NCBI RefSeq assembly: GCF_030145185.1
Contig: NZ_JAQYWB010000026.1
Coordinates: 7,454-71,453, forward strand
Reading direction: 5' to 3'
DNA from: Desulfoluna sp.
GTDB lineage: Bacteria; Desulfobacterota; Desulfobacteria; Desulfobacterales; Desulfolunaceae
Length of the DNA: 64,000 bases
Shown here: piece by piece, positions 40,730-64,000 of the stretch
Layout of the letters: every line of letters begins with the position of its first letter
Position numbering within the stretch: position 1 is the first letter of the stretch
Position numbers and translations under genes: made by a program
The notes under the pieces: model-generated
Database searches by the model: none
Seen by the model: only the letters and a program-made list of their open reading frames with translations
What the model was told of the DNA's origin: nothing

Positions 40730-41120
40730 CCCTCCGGCCTATATATCCCCTCTAAACAGACCCTTCCTTCAGGACACCTGTCCTTTCTCCTTTTTCCACC
40801 CGGGCATGTCCTGCTGAAACAAAATGGGCGTTTGCCTTCAATTTGCTTGAAAAAGAATGTGAAATGACTTATTTAGAGAGTTTTTGACCCGTTGTCATCG
40901 GTGGTCCCAGAGAAGTCGAAAATCGACAAAATCGATGGGAATGGGTCGAAAAGAAAGCGACGATTGCGGGAAACATCAGCGGCGCCCAATATCTCTGCCC
41001 GAATGGCACTCCCGACGCCACATCCCATCCCGCCCGTCGCCCCAATGGCAACCCCCGCGTCACCCGGATATCCGGGGGTCGCTTTTCATGATTTCTTCAG
41101 TTTCAGGTAATACTAAAAGC

Positions 41121-42719
41121 ATGTCTCACGAAAATAACACGCCCTTCGCACGGGAAATCAATAAGCGCCGAACCTTCGGCATCATCAGCCACCCCGACGC
41201 GGGTAAAACCACGTTGACGGAAAAACTCCTCCTCTTTGGTGGGGCGATCCAGCAGGCAGGCGCCGTAAAATCCCGAAAAACAGACCGTCACGCCACCAGC
41301 GACTGGATGGCCATCGAACAGGAAAGGGGCATCTCAGTCACCAGCTCGGTGATGAAATTCAACTACCACGATTACGACATCAACCTCCTCGACACCCCCG
41401 GCCACAAGGATTTCTCCGAGGACACCTACCGTGTCCTCACGGCGGTGGACAGTGCCATGATGATCATCGACCACGCCAAAGGGGTGGAGACCCAGACTGA
41501 AAAGCTCATGGAGGTGTGCCGCATGCGCAACACCCCGATCATGACCTTTATCAACAAACTGGACCGGGACGGCATGGAGCCCCTGGACATTCTGGCCGAT
41601 ATTGAAGAGAAACTTCAGATCGAGTGCACCCCCCTCACCTGGCCCATCGGCATGGGCAAACGCTTCAAGGGGGTCTACAACCTCTACAAAAAAGAGCTCC
41701 ATCTCTTCTCTGCGGAAAAAGAGACCCTGGCCAAGGAGGGCATCCGCATTCAGGATCTCTCCGACCCCAAGCTCGACGAGCTGCTCGGCAGCCAGGCCAA
41801 TGACCTCCGAGATGACATCGAGCTCATCGAAGGGGCCGCCGATCCCTTTGAGCTGGAGCTTTACCTTAAGGGCACCCAGACGCCGGTCTTCTTCGGCAGC
41901 GCCATCAACAACTTCGGTGTTCAGGAGCTGCTGGACGCCTTCGTGGAGATGGCTCCCACCCCCATTACCCGAAAGGCCATCACCCGAGAAGTGTCTCCTT
42001 ACGAAGAGGAGTTCTCCGGCTTTGTCTTTAAAATTCAAGCCAACATGGACCCATCCCACCGGGACCGCATCGCCTTTTTCCGCATCTGTTCGGGAAAATT
42101 CACCCGGGGCATGAAGGTCAAACACCACCGCATCGGCAAGGACATCACCATTGCCAACGCCACCATCTTCATGGCCCAGGATCGAACCAACGTGGAAGAG
42201 GCTTTCCCCGGTGATATCATTGGGATCCACAACCACGGCACCATTAAGATCGGGGACACCTTCACCACCAAAGAGGCGCTGAAGTTCACCGGCATTCCCA
42301 GTTTTGCCCCGGAACACTTCAAACGGGTGCTTTTAAAAAACCCATTGAAAACCAAGCAGCTCCAAAAGGGCCTTCTCCAGTTGGCCGAAGAGGGGGCCGT
42401 TCAGGTCTTCCGCCCCTTGCGCGGAAGCGATTATATCCTGGGTGCCGTCGGAGAGCTGCAGTTTGAAGTGACCATCGCCCGACTTAAAAACGAATACAAC
42501 GTGGATGCCGCCTACGAGCATGTCAATATCGGGGTGGCACGATGGATTGAAAGTGATGACAAAAAAAAGATGGATGACTTCAAAGAGGGCCAGAGGGCCA
42601 GCCTGGCCATGGATGCCGAAGGGCACCTCACCTTTCTGACCACCAGCGAATGGCAACTGGGATTTGTAATGGAGCAGAACCCCGACATTGTGTTTAACAA
42701 GACACGGGAATACGCCTGA
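41121..42719 (+). CDS. prfC: peptide chain release factor 3
   Basis: GTPase G1-G4 motifs ([17 protein letters not shown]) and RF3-wide similarity at 532 aa. Confidence 0.92.
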
Positions 42720-45700
42720 TGAAAGCGCAAAAATACCGAGAGATACCCTACAACTACACCTCTGCCGACGATGAACTGGTGGTCACCTACCTGTTTGACG
42801 CAAAGGTGTGGAACCGACTCCTGGAGCTGAGGGGCAAACGTATCACCGGACGTTCCGCCAAGCTACTCATGCGGCTGATGGGTGATATGTTTATCTTGAA
42901 GCGCAACCCCTTCCTCTTTGACGACCTGGCCCATTCACACCGTCGACGCCGCCTGTTCCTCAAGACGGCCACCAACGACCTGGCCATCATCGAAAAAATG
43001 GCAGACCAGAAAGAGGTCCTGGAGATCACCGGGCGATGCCGCAAGGCCCTGAAAGCGCTCAACGACTCCCTGAAAACCCACAAGCGTCAAAGTCGCTACA
43101 TCAAACGCGAACTGGGGGCCATCATTGGCCGAGAGAACGTCTGCTTTGAGCCCTTCTCCATCATCAGCCACGCCACGGACGCCACGGACTGGCGACGCCA
43201 CCTTGCCGTGGCCGTCCTGCGTCCCACCCGGGAGTCCCAAATAGCGCCCCTGATAAAAGCCGTCGAAAAGCTCGGTCTTTCTATCATCCCCCGCGGTGCG
43301 GGCACCGGCCTCACCGGGGGCAGCGTGCCGGTCTCTGAAGGCTGCGTGATGATCAACACGGAAAAACTCAACCGCATTCGGGGCACCAAACACCTTCCAG
43401 CGGCTCCCGGTACCGGCATGAGCAGCATGACGGTCCTTGAACTGGAAGCGGGAGTCATTACCCAGACGGCCATGGCCTACGCCGAAGCCGAAGAGCTCGT
43501 CTTTGCCACCGACCCCACCAGCTCCTGGGCCTGCACCATCGGCGGCAACATCGCCGAAAACGCCGGCGGTAAAAAAGCGGTGATGTGGGGCACCGCCATC
43601 GACAACCTGGTCTCCTTCCGCATCGCCATGCCCGGCGGACGCCTCATGGAAGTACGCCGGGAAGACCACCCCATGCGAAAAATCCTGCCCGAAGACACCG
43701 TTATCTTTTCCGTCCGGGATGAAGAGGGGCAGGTTCGAAAAGTCATCACCCTTGCCGGAACGGAAATCCGCAAGGTGGGGCTGGGAAAAGACATCACCAA
43801 CAAGGCCCTGAAGGGCCTGCCCGGTATTCAAAAAGAGGGATGCGACGGCATCATCACCTCGGCAGAGTTCATCCTCTACCCCCCCTTTGAGTACAAGACC
43901 ACCTTCTGCCTGGAATTCTTCGGCAACGACATGGAAGAGGCCAGCGAAGTCATTGTCAAGATCTCCAAGGAGTTCAAAAACAATGGCAAAGAGGCCCTCA
44001 TCGCCTTGGAACACTTTGATGACGAGTACATGCACGCCATCAACTACAAGGTGAAGGCAACGCGAAAAGGGAGCCCCAAAGCCGGCCTTCTCATCGACAT
44101 GGTGGGGCACAACGAAGAGGAAATTACGCGGGGGGTCCAACGCCTTCAGGATCTGCTGGTCCCGTACGAAAACACCGAACTCTTTGTGGCCCGGGACGAA
44201 GACGAAGCCGAGCGCTTCTGGAAAGACCGCAAGAAACTCGGGGCCATCGCCAAGCGCACCAACGCCTTCAAGCTCAACGAAGATATCGTCCTCCCCCTGG
44301 ACGCCATCGGCGCCTTTACCCGTTTTGCGGACCTTTATAACCTGGAAGAGAACCGCTACAACCAGGCGGACTTCGTCCACGCCACCCTGTCCTACCTGGA
44401 ACACGCCGAACCCATCGAAGATCCGGAATGGCTTGAGGCACGTATTCCCAAGGCCCGTGAAATCTGCACCGAAGCCCTGACCGCCACCCGGGAAGCCACG
44501 GCGGCAGAGCTCAAAGACGGGGCTCAGGCGAAACAGCTGTTGGCCGAGCTCCTGGAGTTCTTTCGCGGTTACAAGCGTATCTCCGGAGACTTCCAGCGTA
44601 TCTTTAAAGAGGCACGGGCCCGCCAGATCATCATTGCCACCCACATGCATGCGGGTGACGGCAACGTCCACGTCAACATTCCTGTCTTCTCCAACGACAT
44701 GGAGATGATGAAGCGCGCCACCAAAACGGCCGATAATATCATGGAAGAGGCCGTCCGCCTGGGCGGCGTGGTAAGCGGTGAGCATGGCATCGGTATCACC
44801 AAGATGAAATATCTGGAGCCGTCCCTGGCGAAAGACCTGGCCGCCTACAGAAAAGAGGTGGACCCCAAAGGGGTGATGAACCCCGGCCAGCTCGTAGATC
44901 CCACCATTCAGTCCAAGGTCTATACGCCCTCTTTCAACCTGCTGGAGTTGGAAGCGAGCATCCTGCAGCACGGGTCTCTGGAAACCCTGGCGGCCAAGAT
45001 AGCCACCTGCGTGCGCTGCGGAAAATGCAAGATCGATTGCTGTACCTTCTACCCGGCCAAAAACATGTTCTACCATCCGAGAAACAAAAACCTGGCCATT
45101 GCCTCTCTCATTGAGGCGATCCTCTACGATGTGCAACGGTCCCACTCCACACGCTTCAAATTTCTCAAGCAGATGGAAGAGATCGCCGACCACTGCACCA
45201 TGTGCCATAAGTGCTTCAAGCCCTGCCCTGTGGACATCGACACGGCCGAGGTGTCTCTGATGGAACGGGAGATCCTCGTCTCCCGAAAATACAAAAAGAC
45301 CCCCCTGGCCACCCGGGCCTCTCTCACCTACCTGGAGACCCGGAACCCCCTGGCCAATGCCCTGTTTCGAAAGGGCCTCGTCACCTGGGGAGGTGCCCTT
45401 CAGCGGACCGGTCACAAGGTGATCAAGAGCATGGCACCTGTGAAGAAAACGCTGGCCGGGATTCAAGCGATTCAACTTCTTGAGTCTCCCATGCCTCACA
45501 CGCCTTCGGATACCCTGCGGAGTATTCTGCCCAAGTGCGGCACCAACCAGGCGCTGATCCTGAACCCGCCGGAGGAGACAGAACAGTCTGTCTTCTACTT
45601 TCCCGGGTGCGGTTCCGAGCGGCTCTTTTCAGATATTGCCAAGGCCGCCATCTATATCCTGCTCTCAGCTGGAACACGGGTGGTGTTGCCACCGCCTTAT

Positions 45701-46333
45701 ATCTGCTGCGGATTCCCCGCCAAGGTCAACGCCAAGACCGTCCAGCACAGCCAGATCACCTTGCGGGACTCGGTCATTTTCAGCCAGATCCGCGAAATGA
45801 TCAGCTACGTGGATTTCGATGCCTGTGTGGTGAGCTGCGGCACCTGCCGGGAAGCCCTGGAAGAGTTCGGGGCACCAGAAATCCTGGGCTGCAGAATCGA
45901 GGACGTCAGCCGATTTGCCCTGGAAAATGGCCTGGATGTCAAAGGAGGCAACAGCTGCCTCTACCACGCCCCCTGCCATGACTCCCTGGACGGGGAAGCG
46001 GCCAGCCTTCTGGAAGAGTTCACCGGATACTCCGTCGAGACCATCCCCTACTGCTGTTCGGAAGGGGGGACCCTCTCCATGAGCCGCCCCGACATCACCA
46101 ACGCCATGCTCCAGCGAAAACATGATGAAATCCAGCTGCGGACCGAGGGAAAAGGCAGAGAAACGACCCTTCTCACCAACTGCCCGTCCTGCATCCAGGG
46201 GCTGGGCCGAAATCACGACCTCGATATCATTCCCCGGCATCTGGCCGTTGAACTGGCCATCCAGACCGGCGGAAAAAACTGGGAAGAAAAACTCAAAGCC
46301 ATGGTCAAACAGGCCGAGGTGGTCACCTTCTAA
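42719..46333 (+). CDS. DUF3683 - FAD-linked oxidase - 4Fe-4S - CCG-domain fusion protein (YdiJ-like 2-hydroxyacid/D-lactate dehydrogenase type)
   Basis: 1204 aa. FAD-binding PCMH-type region (PRGAGTGLTGGSVP), ferredoxin-type Cys clusters (CVRCGKCKIDCC; CHKCFKPCPVD) and C-terminal Cys-rich CCG repeats. The start ATG overlaps the prfC stop (TGATG). Confidence 0.8.
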   Translation: MKAQKYREIPYNYTSADDELVVTYLFDAKVWNRLLELRGKRITGRSAKLLMRLMGDMFILKRNPFLFDDLAHSHRRRRLFLKTATNDLAIIEKMADQKEVLEITGRCRKALKALNDSLKTHKRQSRYIKRELGAIIGRENVCFEPFSIISHATDATDWRRHLAVAVLRPTRESQIAPLIKAVEKLGLSIIPRGAGTGLTGGSVPVSEGCVMINTEKLNRIRGTKHLPAAPGTGMSSMTVLELEAGVITQTAMAYAEAEELVFATDPTSSWACTIGGNIAENAGGKKAVMWGTAIDNLVSFRIAMPGGRLMEVRREDHPMRKILPEDTVIFSVRDEEGQVRKVITLAGTEIRKVGLGKDITNKALKGLPGIQKEGCDGIITSAEFILYPPFEYKTTFCLEFFGNDMEEASEVIVKISKEFKNNGKEALIALEHFDDEYMHAINYKVKATRKGSPKAGLLIDMVGHNEEEITRGVQRLQDLLVPYENTELFVARDEDEAERFWKDRKKLGAIAKRTNAFKLNEDIVLPLDAIGAFTRFADLYNLEENRYNQADFVHATLSYLEHAEPIEDPEWLEARIPKAREICTEALTATREATAAELKDGAQAKQLLAELLEFFRGYKRISGDFQRIFKEARARQIIIATHMHAGDGNVHVNIPVFSNDMEMMKRATKTADNIMEEAVRLGGVVSGEHGIGITKMKYLEPSLAKDLAAYRKEVDPKGVMNPGQLVDPTIQSKVYTPSFNLLELEASILQHGSLETLAAKIATCVRCGKCKIDCCTFYPAKNMFYHPRNKNLAIASLIEAILYDVQRSHSTRFKFLKQMEEIADHCTMCHKCFKPCPVDIDTAEVSLMEREILVSRKYKKTPLATRASLTYLETRNPLANALFRKGLVTWGGALQRTGHKVIKSMAPVKKTLAGIQAIQLLESPMPHTPSDTLRSILPKCGTNQALILNPPEETEQSVFYFPGCGSERLFSDIAKAAIYILLSAGTRVVLPPPYICCGFPAKVNAKTVQHSQITLRDSVIFSQIREMISYVDFDACVVSCGTCREALEEFGAPEILGCRIEDVSRFALENGLDVKGGNSCLYHAPCHDSLDGEAASLLEEFTGYSVETIPYCCSEGGTLSMSRPDITNAMLQRKHDEIQLRTEGKGRETTLLTNCPSCIQGLGRNHDLDIIPRHLAVELAIQTGGKNWEEKLKAMVKQAEVVTF

Positions 46334-51155: not shown

Positions 51156-51596
51156 TCACCTGTAAGCGGAAGGGCCTTCAAGAAAATCGTATTTCAAGCG
51201 CGTGAAATTCTGAATAAAGTAGTCCACCTGAACCACCTGTCCTACCGATAATGCCTCAAAAATAAGCGACCGCTGTCGCACCATTTTAAAGGGACCAAAA
51301 CGTCCTGTGCCGATCCGTTTATCCGATATAATCCGAAAAGGCAGGCTCCCCAGAAAGAAATTACCGTACCGTATGTTGACACAGGTATCCAGACTTCGCG
51401 CATCCAGAGTGTCGTTGACATAATAGATACAGGAGAGCCCCTCACGGCTGATATTAATGAGGGGCCCCCTTCGGGTAAATGACGGTGAAAAAACGATATA
51501 GGCTCCCCTCTTAGGGAGATAGCGATCACAACGACGTAAATCACCCATACGTACCTCACGCATTCTGCCACCGAATCGGGGCGAAAAATGAATCAT
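51156..51596 (-). CDS. PilZ-domain protein (putative c-di-GMP receptor), start uncertain
   Basis: RRCDR followed ~20 aa later by NISREGL (RxxxR / D-x-S-x-G-G-like PilZ motifs). Confidence 0.45.
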   Translation of the reverse strand: MIHFSPRFGGRMREVRMGDLRRCDRYLPKRGAYIVFSPSFTRRGPLINISREGLSCIYYVNDTLDARSLDTCVNIRYGNFFLGSLPFRIISDKRIGTGRFGPFKMVRQRSLIFEALSVGQVVQVDYFIQNFTRLKYDFLEGPSAYR

Positions 51597-55338: not shown

Positions 55339-56229
55339 ATGGAAACCCCCATCCTGGAAATCCGGAATCTTGTCAAACATTACGCCGATGTCACCGCGGT
55401 CAAAGGGATCTCTTTTGCCATCCGTCGCGGCACCTGCTTTGGGCTCTTAGGCCCCAACGGCGCCGGTAAAACCACCACGATTGAAGTGACCGAAGGCATT
55501 CTCCCCGAAACCTCCGGTGAGATCCTGTACAAAGGGGCTCCACGGGGTGAAAGCTTTACCCGGGAGGTGGGCATCCAACTCCAGAACACCGAGTTGCCCC
55601 TGTTCCTCACCGTGGAAGAGACCCTGGAGACCTTCCGTCATCTCTACACAAAACGCGCAGGACGGGAAGCCCTCATCGCCGCCTGTCGCTTAGAAGAGAT
55701 CCTTAAGCGAGACAACCGAAAAATCTCAGGCGGCCAAAAACAGCGACTGCTCCTGGCCATGGCCCTGGCAAGCGACCCGGACCTCATTTTTTTAGATGAG
55801 CCCACCACCGGCTTGGACCCCCAGGCCAGGCGTCATCTCTGGGAAATCGTGGAGAAACTCAAGGAAGACGGAAAGACGGTGGTGCTCACCACCCACTACA
55901 TGGAAGAGGCGCAAAACCTCTGCGATGAAATCGCCATCATGGATCACGGTCGCATCATCGCCATGGGAAAAACAGAAGCCCTCCTTGCCGCCCATTGCAA
56001 AGGCTCTTCCATCATGCTGCCCGGAACCGCACCCGACGACGCCTTCACCGCCCTGTCTTCCGCCTGGTTCCGCCTGCCGGACGGTCGCATCTCTATCCAA
56101 ACTGAAGACCCGGACGCCTCCCTGCGGGAACTGGTCGCAAAGGGATTTGACCTGACCGGCATTGTCGTGACCCCCCAGACCTTAGAAGACCTGTTCCTCG
56201 AGCTGACGGGCAACGCCCTTCGAACCTGA
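55339..56229 (+). CDS. ABC transporter ATP-binding protein (ABC-2 type)
   Basis: Walker A GPNGAGKTT, signature SGGQKQR, Walker B LIFLDEPT. Confidence 0.9.
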   Translation: METPILEIRNLVKHYADVTAVKGISFAIRRGTCFGLLGPNGAGKTTTIEVTEGILPETSGEILYKGAPRGESFTREVGIQLQNTELPLFLTVEETLETFRHLYTKRAGREALIAACRLEEILKRDNRKISGGQKQRLLLAMALASDPDLIFLDEPTTGLDPQARRHLWEIVEKLKEDGKTVVLTTHYMEEAQNLCDEIAIMDHGRIIAMGKTEALLAAHCKGSSIMLPGTAPDDAFTALSSAWFRLPDGRISIQTEDPDASLRELVAKGFDLTGIVVTPQTLEDLFLELTGNALRT

Positions 56230-56270
56230 CAACCCGCTTTCAAGATGGCTTACCTTGCCGCCTGAGGCCC
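56230..56270 (+). repeat. degenerate right-arm repeat unit between ABC genes
   Basis: CAACCCGCTTTCAAGATGGCTTACCTTGCCGCCTGAGGC. Confidence 0.6.
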
Positions 56271-56302
56271 TTTTTCATTTTTTTACCAGAGGTATTGTTC
56301 CC

Positions 56303-57328
56303 ATGATCAAACGCATCTGGACCCTTTTCAAAGCCCGGAATATCGAATTCTACAGAGACCGTTCCGCCCTGGGGTGGAGCCTTCTCTTCCCCTTTCTCGT
56401 CATTGCGGGATTTTCTCTTATTTTCAGTGAAAATTCACAAAGACTCTACAAAGTGGGCGTCCTTCACACAACCCCCGGCCCGGACCTCTCCGAGAGCGGT
56501 CATCTCCTCACCCACCCCCTCATCCAGGCCATTGAGGTTTCCCCGCTTGACTCTGCCCTGTCCAAACTGCGGCACCACCGTCTTGACATGGTCCTCGCGC
56601 CGGACACAGGCCACTACTGGATTAACACTGACGCCCCCAAGGGGGCTGTCCTCGAAGAGATCCTTCTGGGCGGCGAACGGAAAACACCCGGGCCATTTAC
56701 CAGACAGGTGATCGAAGGAGACCGGATCCCCTATGTGGAATGGCTCTTTCCCGGCGTCCTCGGCATGAACATGATGTTTTCCGCCCTGTTCGGGGTAGGG
56801 TATGTGGTGGTCCGTTACCGGAAAAACGGGGTTCTGAAACGTTTCAGCGTCACCCCGGTTCGCCCCTGGGAGTTCCTCACCGCCCAGATCCTCTCTCGCC
56901 TCTTTGTCATGATCGCCACCACCGGCATCGTCTATGGCACATGCGCTGCCCTCTACGGCTTTTCCTGCCGTGGCTCGTTCGGGGCTCTGTTCACCGTCTT
57001 TCTCGCCGGAGGCATGGCCATGATCTCCTTAGGTCTCCTCCTGGCCGCCCGGGGCAGCAGTGAAGAGCTGGCCGGAGGCATCTTGAACCTCGTCTCCTGG
57101 CCCATGATGTTTCTGTCCGGCGTCTGGTTCTCCCTTGAGGGCACGGCCCCATGGGTCCAAACCCTCGCCCGAATATTCCCCCTGACCCACCTCATCGAAG
57201 GCGCCCGAAAGGTGATGAACGACGGAGCTGGCTTTGCCGAGATCCGCTTTGAAATTGCCATCCTCCTGGCCATGGCCCTGGCATGCCTCATTGCAGGTTC
57301 CCTTCTCTTTCAGTGGAAGAATGAATAA
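56303..57328 (+). CDS. ABC-2 family transporter permease
   Basis: 341 aa from MIKRIWTLFKARNIEFYRDR, with a 6-TM ABC-2 profile. Confidence 0.8.
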   Translation: MIKRIWTLFKARNIEFYRDRSALGWSLLFPFLVIAGFSLIFSENSQRLYKVGVLHTTPGPDLSESGHLLTHPLIQAIEVSPLDSALSKLRHHRLDMVLAPDTGHYWINTDAPKGAVLEEILLGGERKTPGPFTRQVIEGDRIPYVEWLFPGVLGMNMMFSALFGVGYVVVRYRKNGVLKRFSVTPVRPWEFLTAQILSRLFVMIATTGIVYGTCAALYGFSCRGSFGALFTVFLAGGMAMISLGLLLAARGSSEELAGGILNLVSWPMMFLSGVWFSLEGTAPWVQTLARIFPLTHLIEGARKVMNDGAGFAEIRFEIAILLAMALACLIAGSLLFQWKNE

Positions 57329-57335
57329 AAAAAAT

Positions 57336-57660
57336 GCCTCCGGCGGCCCTGCCGTGGGCTAAACTTTTGCCTGATTTTATAAAGATGGGTTTAACCAACA
57401 GGTCTTAAATACATAGTTCAGATTTACGTCGACCCAAATCCGGATGTGATTTGACCCGAGGAATCCGCCTACGCCCATGTCTATGCGCCACCATTCGACC
57501 AACGTCAATGGGCTACGGAGCGACAAGCGATCCGTCTTCGCCTGCGGCTACGCCGTGACATGGGGGCAAAACGCATCCGCAACCTGCTTTCAAGGTGTTT
57601 TTGCCTAAATGGCTTCGCCACCCTTACCGCCGGAGGCTATTGGGGGAGCTGGATAGTTAT
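57336..57660 (+). repeat. composite repeat element, copy C (full length)
   Basis: TIR GCCTCCGGCGGC (57336) ... CCGCCGGAGGC (57636), then outer GCTGGATAGTTAT. The core matches copies A and B over ~150 nt. Confidence 0.9.
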
Positions 57661-57764
57661 CACAAATATGGGGTTGCGACGGCCAGTCGCCATACCCTAT
57701 AGTGCATGAACAAAAAACACGCTCACCTGCTTATGAAGCCATCACCATCTCTGGAGGTCCACCC

Positions 57765-59381
57765 ATGCCATCTTTTTTTTATCAGCCCCTCTTTCCTATT
57801 GGTCCGGATACCACTGTTTACCGCAAACTCAGCGATGAGGGGATTGAAAAAGGGGAGGTTTTTGGCGACCCTGTGATCCGTGTAACTCCGGAGGCCCTGA
57901 CCCTTCTGGCCCGTGAGGCCTTCGCCGACGTCTCCTTTCTTTACCGAACCCGACATCTGGAGCAACTCCGGCGCATTCTTGACGACCCCGAGGCGTCGAA
58001 AAACGACACCTATGTGGCCCTGGAGATGCTGAAAAATGCCGTGATCGCGTCAGAAAAAATTTTCCCCATGTGCCAGGATACCGGCACAGCTACAGTGGTG
58101 GCCAAAAAGGGAACCCGGGTTTTTTCAGGCCGTGAGATCCCGGATGAAGAGGCGATCTCAAAGGGCATTTTTGACACCTACACCCAAAAAAACCTGCGCT
58201 ACTCCCAGCTGGCTCCTCTCTCCCTGTTTGAAGAGACCAACACCGGATGCAACCTGCCTGCGCAGATCGACATTCAAAACGGGAAAGGGGCAAGCTACGA
58301 CTTTCTCTTTATTGCCAAGGGGGGCGGCTCTGCCAACAAAAGCTTTCTGTTTCAGGAAACCAAGGCGATCTTAAACCGCCAGAGCCTGCGCACCTTTTTA
58401 AAGAGCAAAATCACCGAAATCGGCACCTCCGCCTGCCCCCCTTATCATCTGGCTATTGTCATCGGGGGCTCCTCGGCTGAGGTCACACTGAAGACCGTCA
58501 AGCTCGCCTCTGCCGGCTATCTGGACTCTCTGCCGGAGAAGGGCAACGAATTCGGGCACGCCTTCCGGGACCGGGACATGGAAGAGGAGGTGCTTCACAT
58601 GACCCAGCAGATAGGCTTGGGGGCTCAATTCGGAGGGAAATACTTCTGTCACGATGTCCGTGTCATCAGGCTGCCACGACACGGAGCCTCCTGCCCGGTG
58701 GGCATCGGGGTCAGCTGCAGTGCGGATCGGAACATCAAAGGAAAAATTACCGGGGAAGGGGTCTTTCTGGAGCAGCTGGAAAACGACCCTGCACAGTTTC
58801 TACCGAAACCGGCCATCGCGGTCGCACCAGGGATTGCGGTCGACCTGAACCGCCCCATGGACGAGATCCTGTCGGAGCTTTCGAGCCATCCGGTGGGGAC
58901 ACGGCTCTCGCTGTCCGGCGACATCATCGTCGCCCGAGACATCGCCCACGCCAAGCTCGCCGAGGAATTGGAAAAGGGTGGCGACCTGCCCGATTACTTC
59001 AAAACCCACATGATCTACTACGCGGGTCCCGCCAAAACGCCGGAAGGCTACGCCTCAGGATCTTTCGGCCCCACAACAGCGGGCCGCATGGACCCCTACG
59101 TCCCCATCTTCCAGAAACGGGGGGGCTCACGTATCATGCTGGCCAAGGGAAATCGTTCCGCAAAGGTAAGAAAATCATGCGAGGAAAACGGGGGCTTCTA
59201 CCTGGGATCCATCGGGGGACCGGCGGCCCGTCTCGGCCGAGACTGCATCAGCAAGGTGGAGATCCTTGCCTATGAAGAGCTCGGCATGGAGGCCATCTTC
59301 AAAATCACCGTCAAGGAGTTCCCCGCCTTTATCATTATCGACGACAAAGGGAACGACTTCTACCAACAGGCCATCCTATGA
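57765..59381 (+). CDS. fumarate hydratase class I (Fe-S hydro-lyase, fused alpha/beta type)
   Basis: 538 aa from [11 protein letters not shown] (RBS GGAGG). Conserved Cys ligand contexts (MCQDTGTA, ...CPPY..., ...[12 protein letters not shown]...). Confidence 0.85.
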
Positions 59382-59392
59382 AAAAGCCATGA

Positions 59393-62300
59393 TTAAATGG
59401 ACGTCACAAAGGTTTCAAGGACCGAAACCGCCATAGGCTCCACAAACGCAATGTGAATGGAGATGGCATTCTCTCCTCGCGCGTTTACGCTGCTGACACG
59501 CCCCTGAATAGAAAAACTGTCGGCGTGTTCACCGGGCGTCATCAAAGAGCAGATCGAACGCCCGAGGAGCAGACGTGCCATGGCATATCCACTACTCTTC
59601 ACTTCGACTGAAAGCCCCCCTTCGGAGAGATCGATCATGGCCCCCGAGAATGCTTTGCCCACCGTGGTGCCTGTGTCCGTCAACAGCTGAAGCACCACCT
59701 TCCCGTCGACATCAAACCGTTTGTAGCGACGCCTCTCAACCCCTTTGGCCTGAACGGTCTCGGATAGATTATTAAACCGGCGGCAAAAGGTGCGAAGCTT
59801 TTGAACGCACTCGGGGTGTTTCGTCTCCAGGGTCTTCAGGCTCTCGCGATCCAGAAACCCGACATTGGCCCCTGTAAGGGCCACGAGGGACGCTGTACTG
59901 ACATTGGTTCGAAAAAAGGCATCGTATCCCACCACATCGCCCTTGCCCAACTCCTTGATAAAAATCTCTTTGGAACCATCTCTATAGATAATCTTCAGTC
60001 TGCCGCTGTTAATAAAACAGAGCCGGTTGATCACCTCTCCCTGGGAAATAATCTCTGCATCGACCTCCACCGCTGTATTCTTTGTGTGGTAATAAAAACT
60101 GGAGGCTTCCTCATCGGTCAGCAGCTCATAAAGATCTTTCCATGTCTCCAGATACTCACCGGAATCGACAAACCGCTTCTCCTGCTCAATGATCTCTTCG
60201 GCTCGAACCGTTTCACTGAGAGCCAGCTCATCCACGTCGGATATACGCATCTTATAACGCTCGGCACGTTGAAAATCCTTTTCACGCGCAGCACGTTCCA
60301 CCATCAGAAGGAGCATCCTCAGGGCCGAGGGTGTTTTCCCCCCGCTGATGAGTCCATTGACAATGGCGTCAAGGATACTGAAATCCTCTTCAGCGATGTA
60401 TTCACGGGTCACTTTCACTCGCGTATCGGGTTCTGTCTCCTGTGCCGTTGTCCGCTCTTTCGAAATGGCATCCCGAATCCTGAGAATCGCCTCTTCAGCC
60501 AGAGACTTCTGACCTGAGGTAAATCGACTCCTCCCCAGGAGCCCTCTTTGATCCACCACAAGTTGAAGCGTCGGCAGCGCCTTCATGGACCCGATCTCTC
60601 CCAGGGCCAGACAGACAGCCTGAATGACCTGATGTCTCTCTTCCGGTGTGCCGGCCAGTTTTGATTTCAAAACCTCAGAGAGCGCATACACGGCCTCATC
60701 ACCGCCCAATTGAGAAAGAGACTCCGCCAGGCGTGGTTTCACCTCGTTGGGGACCTGAAGAATTGCTTTTGAAAAAAACCGTGGACACTTGTCCCCACCA
60801 ATCTGTTTGACACAGGAGATCACAGCGTCCAATACCGGTTCTTCATCTCGGAGCATCAAGGGTTCCAGAATATCAACCTGCTCTTCAGATCCGATTTCAC
60901 CAAGAATTTTTAAAAGATTGCGAAGGTAAAACCAGGCGCTGTCAGGCTTGATCCGATCGGTAATTTCTCCAAGGGCCGCGGGACCAATATTCAGCAAAAT
61001 GCCCATGGTTCGGATTCGCTCCGCCATGACGTCACTTTCTCGAAGAAGGTCAAGCAAAGGGGGGGCAGATATTTTCCCGAGGAGAACAAGAAAATTCGCC
61101 GTATGCTCCCGGCGTCCTTTTTCATTTTTCCGAAACTCGGCCATGATGGCGTTAAACACCCGTTCTGAAGCCATTCGACGCAAGGTTTTGGCCGCAAATT
61201 CTGTCATCTGGGTATTTTTCTTTAATCGCCCACTTTCAATAAGGCTGAACGTTTCAACCACGGGGATCGCCGAGGCAAGCTGGCGGGACGTCACCATATT
61301 GTGAACATAATTCACCATCATATCGGCAACCGATTCGTAAAGAGGGGTGCCCCCCTGCTGATAGCGGGCCCACAAATTAATGGGGGCCACCACCCGAATC
61401 ACCATATCCCATCGTTCAAGGCTGATAAAAGCCCGAGCGGAATGCAAAAGAACCCGAATGGCCAAAATGGACTGATTCTCATCCTCGAGATTGATGGCCC
61501 GGGAAACCGACTGAATCAACGCTTCGGCTTCGCCACCCCTGCCCTGCTGAACCTTTTCGGTCAGGGTCCGGGGTAACGCCGCCAAGACCTCAGGGTCCGC
61601 CAAAGCGCTGAAATCCCCGTCCGCAAGGGCTTCGATCAGCACCTCGATACGGACAAGTTCTATTTTCTGCAACCTCTCCTCACGCTTCCTCAATTCGTCA
61701 ACCGGGTACTTGAGCTCAATCCCCCTGGGAAGGGAAAGCATCCAGTCCGACGCATTGGCATAGAGCCTCAAATGAGCCCCCGTCACCAATCGACTGCCCC
61801 GTCTCTGGCTTTGAGCCATGAGCAAGAGGCGGGCTGAGAGCATCATAAACGAATCATTGTCAAGCTGATCCACACCCTGGGTGACGTTCATATTTGAAAA
61901 ATTCAACGCCAGGGCATCACAATTAAACCAGGGTCCCAGCGCGTCAAGGCTCCTGTACAAAAGGGGAAAGATCGTCTCATGCCCGCGCTCCATTCCTGCC
62001 AGAATCAAAAAGCCACTCAGCCTCGCCATGCCGGCGATGGTTTCCCAGTCGTTGGCTTCGAATCCCCGGTCACCGATGTAGCTAAAAAATCGACGACTCA
62101 CGGCTTTCAGCCACTCTGTGCTTGATATTTTTCTCGTGATATACCCGAGCGCCTGTGTGTCTGAGATCTGATTGTACCAGATATACCGGAACAGCTCTTC
62201 ATCGCTTTGAATCACCACATCCGTTTCCGCTTCTACAAAAACCCTGTGATTCACAGAGACAAAAACCACCCCCTCGGTATCGAGAATCTTTCGCACCCCC

Positions 62301-62674
62301 CCCAAGGCCTCCATTTCCTCGGGAGCGATACTGAGAACACGAGAAAACTTGGCATAATTCTCAGCATCTATGCCGCGGTCAAAGGCGATGCTCTTAAGGT
62401 TCAGGCTCTCCATAAGAACCCGCAGAGAATGGATCTGAGGCATTCTTTGAGCTCTCGGGTCCAAGAGCTTCCCATCAAAAAGAATCGCCCCTTCCGCTTC
62501 CGACACCACGAACGGAGCCTCCCGGTAAAATACAGTCGTTAGACGTTTATAGCCGGTACTCAATGAATTTTTGACAATGTCACTGGTTTCCGGATAAAGC
62601 CGACAACTTTTCACGGCACTCATAAAAAGATTTACAGCAACACTTGCCGTATTGAGATTGAGTTCATCAGCCAT
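59393..62674 (-). CDS. large HEAT-repeat protein with C-terminal cyclic-nucleotide-binding and PilZ domains
   Basis: 1093 aa from MADELNLN (RBS AAGGTG). ~800 aa of HEAT/PBS-lyase-like repeats, a cNMP-binding beta-barrel region (GEVINRLCFINSGRLKI ... LGKGDVVGYDAFF) and PilZ (RRRYKRF ... IDLSEGGLSV). GC lower than neighbours. Confidence 0.7.
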   Translation of the reverse strand: MADELNLNTASVAVNLFMSAVKSCRLYPETSDIVKNSLSTGYKRLTTVFYREAPFVVSEAEGAILFDGKLLDPRAQRMPQIHSLRVLMESLNLKSIAFDRGIDAENYAKFSRVLSIAPEEMEALGGVRKILDTEGVVFVSVNHRVFVEAETDVVIQSDEELFRYIWYNQISDTQALGYITRKISSTEWLKAVSRRFFSYIGDRGFEANDWETIAGMARLSGFLILAGMERGHETIFPLLYRSLDALGPWFNCDALALNFSNMNVTQGVDQLDNDSFMMLSARLLLMAQSQRRGSRLVTGAHLRLYANASDWMLSLPRGIELKYPVDELRKREERLQKIELVRIEVLIEALADGDFSALADPEVLAALPRTLTEKVQQGRGGEAEALIQSVSRAINLEDENQSILAIRVLLHSARAFISLERWDMVIRVVAPINLWARYQQGGTPLYESVADMMVNYVHNMVTSRQLASAIPVVETFSLIESGRLKKNTQMTEFAAKTLRRMASERVFNAIMAEFRKNEKGRREHTANFLVLLGKISAPPLLDLLRESDVMAERIRTMGILLNIGPAALGEITDRIKPDSAWFYLRNLLKILGEIGSEEQVDILEPLMLRDEEPVLDAVISCVKQIGGDKCPRFFSKAILQVPNEVKPRLAESLSQLGGDEAVYALSEVLKSKLAGTPEERHQVIQAVCLALGEIGSMKALPTLQLVVDQRGLLGRSRFTSGQKSLAEEAILRIRDAISKERTTAQETEPDTRVKVTREYIAEEDFSILDAIVNGLISGGKTPSALRMLLLMVERAAREKDFQRAERYKMRISDVDELALSETVRAEEIIEQEKRFVDSGEYLETWKDLYELLTDEEASSFYYHTKNTAVEVDAEIISQGEVINRLCFINSGRLKIIYRDGSKEIFIKELGKGDVVGYDAFFRTNVSTASLVALTGANVGFLDRESLKTLETKHPECVQKLRTFCRRFNNLSETVQAKGVERRRYKRFDVDGKVVLQLLTDTGTTVGKAFSGAMIDLSEGGLSVEVKSSGYAMARLLLGRSICSLMTPGEHADSFSIQGRVSSVNARGENAISIHIAFVEPMAVSVLETFVTSI

Positions 62675-63220
62675 GAAGATCACACCTTTGTTCAGAATTA
62701 ATGGAATCCGCAGCAACCCTGCTGCCCAGAATGTTAGGATGGCATCGCCAAAAATCGAACGGACGCCATCACACTCAAACATGCCGCCTTCCGTCCACCG
62801 TTGACCCCACGATGCTGTGATGAAGAGCGTTGACCTTTTAAAGAATGTAACCCGTGAAAATGGTGGCTCACCATGGAAAAAGGAGGTGTCATAAAGCTAC
62901 AAACGAAATGAAATTCAGAGAACGAAGAAAGCGATTCATTGTTGATATGCAACCAAAAGCCATCCAAAACTTACCTTGTTATTATAACACTAACCACGTT
63001 TCAATGTAAGTTCAATCTAATGACAAGGCCACCTGCCGCCCCCCACGCGATCTTCATTACCCACCGTATTTACTGGTAAATTACGAGGAGACACGACACC
63101 CACGCCAACCGGACAGACCTGTCACCCGGAGGCGGGCCAGCTCACCCACCCTTCTATCATGCCTTAATTAAACAAAAAAACCTCTGATCACTCAATCTAC
63201 AAGGACCTTTATAAAAAGAT

Positions 63221-63348
63221 TCCGGAGGCGTCCTACTCTCCCGCGCAGCTGCCCGTGCAGTGCCATCAGCGCAAAAGAGCGGGCCTTATCTCATGACTTG
63301 GCCGTGTTCGGAATGGGAACGGGTGTGACCTCTTTGCAATCACCACCG
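63221..63348 (-). rRNA. rrf: 5S ribosomal RNA (copy adjacent to degenerate 23S fragment; possibly itself degenerate)
   Basis: The reverse complement reads ...CACCCGTTCCCATTCCGAACACGGCCAAGTCATGAG...GATGGCACTGCACGGG...GCGGGAGAGTAGGACGCCTCCGGA, matching 5S helices and loops. Confidence 0.75.
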
Positions 63349-63427
63349 AAAAACGGTATATGCGTTTTTCGGATCATTCAATCAGGATATGGATTCAATA
63401 AAGCGCTCAGCATCTGTGTAGTAAGAT

Positions 63428-63930
63428 TGTGGCTAAGCCTCACGACCAATGAGTACCGGTAAACTGAACACATTGCTGTGCTTACACATCCGGCCTATCA
63501 ACCTCGTAGTCTTCGAGGTGTCTTCAGTCCGGCACTCAATTTCATGCTCAAACATGTAGCATTGACAGAGACATTACACGTCTCCTTCAACATACTGCTT
63601 AAGCGCAAAATTGAGTACCGGAAGGGATATCTAATCTTGAAGGGGGTTTGCAGCGATGATGCTTTCAGCGGTTATCCTTTCCGAACCGTAGGATGGGCAA
63701 AGCGCGAAGCGTGCCCATCTTTTACTTCCTGAAAACGCGACAACAGGAACACCAGAGATTCGTCCATTCCGGTCCTCTCGTACGAGGAACAGATCTCCTC
63801 ACCCAGTTTTATTATCTGGCCTCCGCCCACGAAAGATAGGGACTAAACTGTCTCATGACCTTTCATAAATCAGGCAAACCCAGCTCACGGACCACTTTAA
63901 TTGGCGAGCCGTCACCGCTGTATTTCGTAC
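63428..63930 (-). pseudogene. degenerate fragment of the 23S rRNA 3' end (domain V/VI incl. sarcin-ricin loop), not a full 23S gene
   Basis: The reverse complement aligns to GGCT-CGCCAATTAAAGTGG...GAGCTGGGTTT...GTCATGAGACAGTT...AGTACGAGAGGACCGG...TGAAAGCATC...GTTGATAGGCCGG...GTGAGGCTTA. The universally conserved A-loop and GGGUUUAGAACGUCGUGAGACAG segments are altered, and several insertions are present. It begins immediately after a terminator and is only ~500 nt long. Confidence 0.55.
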
Positions 63931-63933
63931 ATA

Positions 63934-63974
63934 CAAAACAAAAAAGGCTCTTGATGATTAAATCATCAAGAGCC
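63934..63974 (-). terminator. rho-independent terminator downstream of the 5S copy that runs off the window
   Basis: On the minus strand, GGCTCTTGATGATTTAATCATCAAGAGCC followed by TTTTTTGTTTTG. Confidence 0.65.
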
Positions 63975-63986
63975 TTTATAAAAAAA

Positions 63987-64000
63987 TCCGGCGGCGTCCT
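63987..64000 (-). rRNA. rrf: 5S ribosomal RNA, 3'-terminal 14 nt only (gene continues beyond window)
   Basis: TCCGGCGGCGTCCT matches the 3' end of the 5S at 63221-63234 with one difference. Confidence 0.4.

Follow-up and report, generated by a model that had tools for sequence, protein, structure and literature searches.

Receptors of the YcgR/PlzD type consist of a PilZN (YcgR-N) barrel and a PilZ domain, carry the RxxxR arm in the linker between the two domains and have no enzymatic output. They provide one point of comparison for the protein considered here, which has 1093 amino acids and is encoded on the minus strand at positions 59393..62674 of a 64,000-nucleotide stretch of Desulfoluna sp. 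DNA (contig NZ_JAQYWB010000026.1, positions 7,454 to 71,453 of the forward strand; the whole stretch is referred to as the window, and all nucleotide positions are counted in it unless another locus is named). A PilZ domain, the receptor domain for cyclic di-GMP (c-di-GMP), follows a cyclic-nucleotide-binding (CNB)-like domain in this large protein, and both stand behind a long solenoid of HEAT type. A second point of comparison is offered by the CNB domains of PKG, PKA and CAP. The arginine of the phosphate-binding cassette that binds the cyclic phosphate is R209 in PKA RI and R82 in CAP, and its loss from PKA or CAP abolishes high-affinity binding of cyclic nucleoside monophosphates (cNMPs). 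The CNB-homology domains of KCNH (EAG/hERG) channels have the CNB fold without the cassette arginine and do not bind cNMPs; their pocket is occupied by an intrinsic peptide ligand.

Fusion of a CNB domain to a c-di-GMP-related domain is known from the CNB-EAL protein Bd1971 (PMC6717892) and the CNB-GGDEF protein XC_0249 (PMC3770947). The enzymatic role of these two is the synthesis or degradation of c-di-GMP, regulated by cyclic AMP (cAMP) or cyclic GMP (cGMP), and their cassettes are functional. The topology of the PilZ domain and its two motifs, RxxxR and [D/N]xSxxG, have been defined by Galperin and Chou (bioRxiv 10.1101/814665), whose survey does not mention HEAT and CNB fusion partners.

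A preliminary description of the window had proposed that HEAT, cNMP-binding and PilZ domains are combined in one protein and that this is not a characterised family. Both statements were borne out. Three Pfam families, cNMP_binding, PilZ and HEAT_2, match above their gathering scores, all within the 1093-residue protein, and no protein with HEAT, CNB and PilZ domains was described in the literature that was searched. The architecture is real, conserved and uncharacterised, while PilZ-based c-di-GMP effectors are a kind already known. The preferred reading, which is held with moderate confidence and on sequence evidence, is that the large protein acts as a cytoplasmic, non-enzymatic c-di-GMP effector, in other words as a protein-interaction scaffold under the control of c-di-GMP.

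The PilZ domain and its motifs

The canonical PilZ domain of the large protein comprises residues 980-1090 (59405..59737, minus strand) and was delimited by Pfam, motif invariance and model topology. Pfam PilZ (PF07238) scores 27.9 bits over residues 980-1081, the gathering score being 22.5. The same family is recorded for 9 of the 11 close homologues, and four distant relatives that were rescanned scored 21.3-30.5 bits, two of them slightly under the cutoff. The strings RRRYKRF and DLSEGGLSV, on which the preliminary description had based its PilZ assignment, are present in the translation (RRRYKR at nucleotides 59717-59734 and DLSEGG at 59615-59632). Neither the arginine motif RRxxxR (R981, R982 and R986) nor the second motif, D1015-x-S1017-x-G1019-G1020, varies among the 12 close homologues. 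Among representatives of clusters at 50% identity that have a residue in the respective column, conservation is almost as complete, both in the arginine motif (R981 in 125 of 127, R982 in 127 of 127, R986 in 127 of 128) and in the second motif (Asp or Asn at 1015 in 124 of 127, S1017 in 122 of 128, G1020 in 127 of 127).

The fold was examined in an AlphaFold model of the full-length protein, computed from an alignment of 12 sequences and with a mean predicted local distance difference test (pLDDT) value of 74.8. Strands at 991-998, 1004-1016, 1020-1026, 1040-1047, 1054-1065 and 1070-1077 and a helix at 1083-1089 are predicted with a pLDDT of ~70-81, which corresponds to the canonical six-stranded barrel with a C-terminal helix. 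The RRxxxR arm sits in the short linker from the last helix of the CNB-like domain (970-976) to the first PilZ strand (991-998). The domain thus has in common with canonical PilZ domains (PF07238; e.g. MapZ/PA4608, bioRxiv 10.1101/814665) an above-threshold Pfam match, both motifs and the barrel with its helix, and differs from them in that it forms the C-terminal end of a very large protein with several other domains. By every sequence criterion it is of the c-di-GMP-binding type.

PilZ domains that do not bind c-di-GMP are known (Galperin and Chou, bioRxiv 10.1101/814665), and forms of the family exist that have only the N-terminal domain and the solenoid and are presumably functional without the C-terminal domains. 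Both facts would suit a constitutive scaffold whose PilZ and CNB-like domains serve protein-protein interaction or oligomerisation only and bind no nucleotide. However, RxxxR and DxSxxG are lost in the non-binding PilZ domains (bioRxiv 10.1101/814665), whereas both motifs are essentially invariant here in ~126 representatives with at most 50% identity. Such near-invariance is hard to explain without ligand binding and therefore argues against the constitutive scaffold, which is considered very improbable. A degenerate PilZ domain, with motif residues that fail to align, had been named beforehand as the finding that would overturn the assignment; the near-invariance of RRxxxR and DxSxGG in these diverged sequences indicates the opposite.

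The CNB-like domain and the cyclic-nucleotide question

The CNB-like domain (cNMP_binding, PF00027) spans residues 867-976 (59747..60076, minus strand), as judged by Pfam, alignments to PDB sequences and conservation in the family. Its Pfam match is clear, with 48.8 bits (cutoff 27.5) and E = 6.8e-13 over residues 873-949, and PKG and CAP are its top PDB matches. The best of these is the CNB-B domain of PKG I (3shr), with an E-value of ~1e-6 for the single sequence and ~7e-12 for the profile. KCNH-type CNB-homology domains also occur among the PDB matches (3ukn, 4f8a and 4llo), and the CNB domain of Bd1971 is a weak match (6hq2, 6hq3).

The phosphate-binding cassette, GDVVGYDAFFRTNVSTASLV, is encoded at 59882-59941 on the minus strand and aligns without gaps to that of PKG I CNB-B (GYDAFFRTNVSTASLVA in the window protein, GEKALQGEDVRTANVIA in 3shr). 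The CNB domains of PKG, PKA and CAP, which give the best sequence matches, have the same cassette length and the same glycine positions, whereas the residues that contact the ligand in them are replaced here. The position of the glutamate that binds the ribose 2'-OH is taken by Tyr917 (in G916-Y917-D918) and that of the phosphate-binding arginine by Ser926. The tyrosine is invariant in the Desulfoluna clade, and the loss of the glutamate is specific to this clade; some wider relatives carry G-E. The arginine is missing family-wide. Its position is occupied by Ser or Cys throughout the 12 close homologues and, in 127 representatives, by Trp (69), Cys (38), Ser (7), Ala (6), Thr (3), Asn (2), Val (1) and one further residue other than Arg, with Arg or Lys in none.

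Because the cassette arginine is absent in all relatives examined and the glutamate is absent in this clade, classical sensing of cAMP or cGMP by the CNB-like domain is unlikely. The preliminary description had inferred a dual input of cAMP/cGMP and c-di-GMP, which is not supported in view of Tyr917, Ser926 and the lack of arginine in all 127 relatives. It had also considered that the cassette might be lacking altogether, and here the outcome is divided: the scaffold of the cassette and its length are kept, and the key ligand residues, Arg and Glu, are gone.

An integrator of two inputs, in which the CNB-like domain binds cAMP or cGMP, PilZ binds c-di-GMP and the HEAT scaffold combines both signals, nevertheless has several observations on its side. 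The PF00027 match lies well above its cutoff, CNB domains of the cGMP-binding PKG are the best PDB matches, and the cassette length, the glycines and the threonine after the arginine position (PKG 'RTA'; T927 in 122 of 127) are conserved; furthermore, most relatives have an acidic residue after the cassette glycine, either directly or one residue later. These features have to be set against an arginine position that is never Arg or Lys, a glutamate position that is Tyr917 in this clade, the loss of high-affinity cNMP binding when PKA or CAP lacks the arginine and the failure of the KCNH-type domains, which also lack it, to bind cNMPs. On balance, the two-input integrator is distinctly unlikely. 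Like the KCNH domains of eukaryotic channels, the large protein has the signature of the CNB fold family without the cassette arginine; the filling of the pocket by an intrinsic ligand is known for KCNH. Bd1971 and XC_0249 share with it the joining of a CNB domain to a c-di-GMP-related domain, whereas the large protein is of the receptor type and its cassette is degenerate.

Conservation within the pocket is high in spite of these replacements. G916, F920, F921 and T927 are conserved to at least 96% among the wider relatives (F920 and F921 in at least 122 of 127), which suggests, at the level of sequence, that the remodelled pocket retains some function. It could have been repurposed for another small ligand or could contribute a guanine contact to a composite c-di-GMP site formed jointly with PilZ. 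The conserved aromatic residues and T927, the Trp or Cys that usually stands at the arginine position, the RRxxxR arm that directly follows the C-helix of the CNB-like domain and the constant occurrence of CNB and PilZ together as one module are all in keeping with this proposal, and some CRP-like proteins, such as Xanthomonas Clp and Burkholderia Bcam1349, bind c-di-GMP. A repurposed pocket is still considered unlikely, given that its conservation could equally be explained by fold stability or intramolecular contact and that the model of the CNB-PilZ pair is unusable. In that model, where a CNB domain would be expected to show an eight-stranded beta-barrel, residues 862-986 have a pLDDT below 50 and form implausible helices, because only 12 sequences were available in the alignment.

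Scaffold, family and separable module

The solenoid, of HEAT/ARM type, extends over residues ~160-735 (60470..62197, minus strand) and was recognised by Pfam, profile matches, AlphaFold and Foldseek. It is all-helical in the model, with a pLDDT of 85-93, and Foldseek related it to CAND1, karyopherins and the PP2A-A subunit with a probability of 1.00. The modelled solenoid thus resembles protein-binding scaffolds; the structures retrieved in a fold search with the full-length model were all generic HEAT/ARM scaffolds and pointed to no particular function. HEAT repeats can be detected by sequence solely at residues ~484-705 (nucleotides 60560-61225), through Pfam HEAT_2/HEAT_PBS and alphaRep profile matches, with HEAT_2 (PF13646) at residues 538-616 and 33.5 bits against a cutoff of 27.7. 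Membership among the HEAT-repeat solenoids (PF13646 / PF03130) is supported by the profile match as well as by the superhelix of repeated helical hairpins. The ~800 residues of HEAT repeats that had been proposed are therefore a fair account of the helical content, but the repeats identifiable by sequence are confined to 484-705 and an alpha/beta domain at residues 1-145 had been overlooked.

In sequence type, the repeats at 484-705 agree with those of the PBS-lyase-type HEAT proteins (NblB, CpcE/F) and of the artificial alphaRep proteins. The match to NblB (NF045915) is local (residues 546-670), with an E-value of 5e-7 and 29.5 bits against an equivalog cutoff of 300, and the alphaRep match has an E-value of 3e-16. 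In contrast to these proteins, the solenoid is much longer here and is accompanied by additional domains, and no sign of bilin or tetrapyrrole binding was seen. No catalytic domain was found in the large protein by Pfam, NCBIfam, PADLOC or a profile search of PDB sequences. The only NCBIfam matches were local and weak ones, to NblB and CRP, and scored far under the respective cutoffs. A role in anti-phage defence was also considered and found unsupported, PADLOC having returned a single match of 14.5 bits over the CNB region.

The N-terminal alpha/beta domain (residues 1-145; 62240..62674, minus strand) defines the family. In 53 diverged sequences, Y27 and P28 never vary, and conservation of at least 90% is seen at A20, R25, S31, P79 and Q80. 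Pfam applied to the 53 members gave scattered chance matches only, and a profile search of PDB sequences gave no relevant match. Foldseek against the PDB gave only insignificant matches, with E-values of at least 0.56 and template modelling (TM) scores of at most 0.26, several of them to GAF domains that were given no weight, and use of the domain alignment as a query for homologues returned one fragment and nothing further. Between the solenoid and the CNB-like domain lie a low-confidence flexible linker (residues 736-763; 60386..60469, minus strand), with a pLDDT of ~30 at 740-753, and a helical adaptor (residues 764-866; 60077..60385, minus strand), whose model helices cover 765-866 within a helical segment of 757-866.

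A word-indexed search had returned 13 matches, suggestive of a tiny family, and this picture was replaced by that of an exhaustive profile search. Counted as representatives of 50%-identity clusters, 4488 matches were found at E <= 1e-3, 1283 at E <= 1e-10 and 533 at E <= 1e-30; the 12 close homologues have a mean column identity of 74%. By these sequence data, the family is large and under selection. Among the best 149 representatives, 77 have the N-terminal domain, the solenoid and the CNB-PilZ end. In another 49 with CNB-PilZ, the N-terminal domain is not seen by the full-length profile, and many of these still match a profile specific for that domain. The remaining 23 are forms of ~680-750 residues, either N-terminal domain and solenoid alone or truncated calls without the PilZ end. 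The presence of HEAT_2, cNMP_binding and PilZ was confirmed by Pfam in distant members, including forms of 1500-1830 residues. All members with an organism name belong to the Desulfobacterota (Desulfoluna spp., Desulfolunaceae, Desulfobacteraceae, Desulfococcaceae, Desulfobacterales, Desulfobulbaceae, Desulfobulbus, Desulfogranum japonicum and 'Deltaproteobacteria'), a host range that is drawn from the named members, most members being metagenome proteins without organism name.

The short forms end near profile position 735, and the linker at 736-763 is the point at which relatives are fused or split. At one locus (L017, 1133-4421), a gene of 748 codons for N-terminal domain and solenoid ends in TAG and is followed, after 34 nucleotides and an AGGAGG Shine-Dalgarno sequence, by a gene for a protein of 335 residues. 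This second protein, made up of helical adaptor, CNB and PilZ, is colinear with residues 764-1087 of the window protein (37% identity, E = 6e-65), and the split falls where the fused protein has its disordered linker. At another locus (L015), a full-length gene is followed directly downstream by a second CNB-PilZ gene for 563 residues. Because of this stand-alone gene and this second CNB-PilZ gene, helical adaptor, CNB-like domain and PilZ are regarded as one unit, and residues 764-1087 (~330 residues), which begin with the adaptor, are on sequence grounds a separable regulatory module. The module would work with the scaffold in cis or in trans, and the fusion and fission events represent 'Rosetta-stone' evidence for joint action of the two parts.

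In the mechanism that is proposed for the preferred reading, c-di-GMP would bind to PilZ by way of its RRxxxR arm and DxSxGG strand, at the junction of the CNB-like and PilZ domains. The CNB-like domain would not be a classical cAMP/cGMP sensor and would stand beside PilZ as an accessory barrel, in the manner of YcgR-N/PilZN in YcgR-type receptors. Ligand at the junction would re-orient the two barrels, and their movement, transmitted by the helical adaptor, would alter the binding of partners by the solenoid or the N-terminal domain. As in the YcgR/PlzD type, an accessory domain, here a presumed beta-barrel, is located directly N-terminal to a canonical PilZ domain with the RxxxR arm in the linker, enzymatic output is lacking and the effect is expected to come from altered protein-protein contacts. 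Unlike in that type, the accessory domain is of the CNB type (PF00027) and is attached to a scaffold of 760 residues consisting of N-terminal domain and HEAT solenoid, so that the analogy is purely functional. The large protein is not a member of the YcgR family, as it has no PilZN domain, but its mode of working may be YcgR-like.

Several points weigh against this effector model. The analogy to YcgR is built on established features of these receptors and on the position of the linker, not on homology, and no YcgR or PilZN Pfam match was obtained for the large protein at E <= 1. The modelled geometry of CNB-like domain and PilZ lends it no support, with the CNB region at a pLDDT below 50. The conserved CNB pocket, with G916, F920, F921, T927 and Trp or Cys at the arginine position, favours a retained pocket function over a passive accessory. 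Finally, gene neighbourhoods vary between lineages and yield no partner.

A more far-reaching proposal takes up the conserved pocket and treats the CNB-like domain not as a relic but as half of a new composite sensor. Its aromatic pocket (FF...S-x-[W/C]-T) might stack on the guanines of c-di-GMP held by PilZ, or might retain the RRxxxR arm in the manner of an 'intrinsic ligand', to be set free by c-di-GMP. In that case, the unit of adaptor, CNB-like domain and PilZ would form a portable c-di-GMP switch that controls a hitherto unrecognised family of N-terminal domain and HEAT proteins of the Desulfobacterota, either fused to them or as a separate subunit. This composite sensor is rather unlikely and is put forward tentatively.

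The gene, its surroundings and its meaning for the family

The open reading frame (ORF) of the large protein runs from 62782 to 59393 on the minus strand and would give 1129 residues if counted from the first ATG. Eleven homologues with 56-75% identity all have 1092-1097 residues and begin with MA[DEQ][EDG]LN; because of this shared length and start, ATG 62674 is taken as the true start, as in the preliminary description. It is preceded by an AAGGTG-like Shine-Dalgarno sequence, and the complete coding sequence (59393..62674, minus strand) has 1093 codons and a stop codon at 59393-59395. The identical NCBI protein (P0001, 'cyclic nucleotide-binding domain-containing protein [Desulfoluna sp.]', 1129 residues) starts at ATG 62782 and is probably 36 codons too long (62675-62782, minus strand).

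Upstream and on the same strand, Rfam placed a 5S rRNA at 63220-63350 and the 3' end of a 23S rRNA from 63429. A promoter-like site between the 5S rRNA and the gene, CTTACA-18-TATAAT with an extended -10 TG (62981..63010, minus strand), is the best-scoring one of the region and is identified by a consensus match only (10/12). It is possible that this site is the gene's own promoter; its location ~300 nucleotides upstream of the ATG would imply a long leader. An Rfam scan of 56000-64000 detected only rRNAs and no known regulatory RNA element in the leader. A gene for class I fumarate hydratase is convergent with the 3' end of the large gene, which appears to be monocistronic.

The 5S rRNA of the window, the only one between the 23S rRNA and the gene, is a variant of 131 nucleotides that scores just 53 bits and has a 12-nucleotide insertion, gagauaaggccc, after model position ~57. 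Further variants were located at 61-192 of L002 and at 489-620 and 689-820 of L004. Normal 5S rRNAs of 117 nucleotides and ~100 bits are found in D. limicola and a Desulfolunaceae metagenome-assembled genome (MAG), and in D. butyratoxydans a single normal 5S precedes two variants of 132 nucleotides arranged in tandem.

The low G+C content of the gene and its position adjoining the rRNA region, both pointed out in the preliminary description, were confirmed by computation and by the Rfam locations. The large gene has a G+C content of 0.517 and a third-position G+C content (GC3) of 0.58, against a GC3 of 0.67-0.75 in ten neighbouring genes, as would be expected of an island gene acquired horizontally. 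However, the gene order of the Desulfolunaceae (rRNA operon, gene, fumarase, ABC transporter, MlaA, ComEC, small ORF, MurA) is kept, including the upstream 23S-5S, in D. limicola, D. butyratoxydans, the Desulfolunaceae MAG and metagenome contigs with proteins down to 57% identity, and the equally conserved small PilZ-like gene described below has an even lower GC3. Although GC3 is truly lower, recent horizontal acquisition was rejected in view of this synteny, an island gene is hardly credible and the hint of transfer in the preliminary description is contradicted. Low GC3 seems to be inherent in these genes, for instance as weak codon bias.

No operon partner was consistently conserved across the loci examined in Desulfolunaceae and other lineages. 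Two distant full-length relatives (L015, L016) share the order DUF362, SDR, Maf, Bac_transf (sugar transferase), gene, DnaB_C/AAA_25, GidA-like and 3D domain, and in another lineage the neighbours are purH and rubrerythrin. At L009 (7724-7957, 77 residues) and L011 (7332-7835, 167 residues), a small ORF without Pfam match is found directly upstream of the family gene and on the same strand; the window gene has no obvious equivalent. A short-form relative of 755 residues without CNB-PilZ (L013 / L014, 1-9900) lies within a tetrapyrrole biosynthesis cluster (hemA-hemC-cobA/hemD-hemB/radical-SAM). The order is GluTR, porphobilinogen deaminase, TP_methylase/HEM4, radical SAM, ALAD, the gene, radical SAM and a NirDL-like AsnC regulator, and 12 other contigs show the same arrangement. 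Since the HEAT repeats are of the PBS-lyase type, the short-form subfamily might conceivably have a role related to tetrapyrroles.

The small ORF between murA (TIGR01072, 576 bits) and comEC (TIGR00361, 311 bits), whose identities were confirmed, had been proposed as a PilZ-like gene of 147 codons. A conserved gene is indeed present, but it has 130 codons (51156..51548, minus strand), starting at ATG 51548 with GAGG as upstream Shine-Dalgarno sequence and not at 51596, and its PilZ identity is supported only indirectly, by the motifs and by the Pfam match of one homologue. The motifs RRCDR (nucleotides 51522-51536) and NISREG (51438-51455) occur at the expected spacing; the first Arg of the former and the Asn of the latter vary among relatives. 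Neither Pfam, NCBIfam nor PDB searches gave a match for the window copy, and this copy and three homologues were without Pfam match at E <= 10. The homologue P0017 (48-50% identity to the small protein, E = 1e-30) matches PilZ over model positions 2-101 of 102 with 25.3 bits against 22.5. When the small ORF was aligned to the PilZ domain of the large protein by hhalign, the probability was 11% with a narrow profile and 63%, a weak value over 29 columns, with a wide one.

In comparisons with two homologues, third codon positions accounted for 52 of 60 and 56 of 72 differences in nucleotides. Protein identity is 89-94% for the small protein, against 57-70% for the large protein encoded in the same genomes. 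Judged by these values, there is no doubt that the small gene codes for protein and that purifying selection on it is strong; at 0.50, its GC3 is unusually low. The exact sequence of the window copy was absent from the protein collection, in which the best cluster is 91% identical, consistent with a gene that was not called in the source annotation. Alignment and motifs make a divergent PilZ-like protein of a single domain the most fitting description of the small protein, whose gene is separate from the large gene 8 kb away.

Elsewhere in the window, no GGDEF motif was found in ORFs of at least 150 residues. A fusion protein of 1204 residues is encoded at 42719-46333 (plus strand), with DUF3683, FAD_binding_4/FAD-oxidase_C, 4Fe-4S dicluster and CCG domains, and is directly preceded by a gene for an RF3-like GTPase (40884-42719) that overlaps it by one base.

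On present evidence, the large protein represents one uncharacterised PilZ architecture among many, and the value of the analysis is the definition of a testable family and not a surprise discovery. Few c-di-GMP effectors have been characterised in sulfate-reducing Desulfobacterota, and this family would add one. If the CNB-like domain were in truth a co-sensor or an intrinsic-ligand partner of PilZ, it would reveal a novel construction principle for c-di-GMP switches and a further case in which the cyclic-nucleotide-binding fold has been put to other use.

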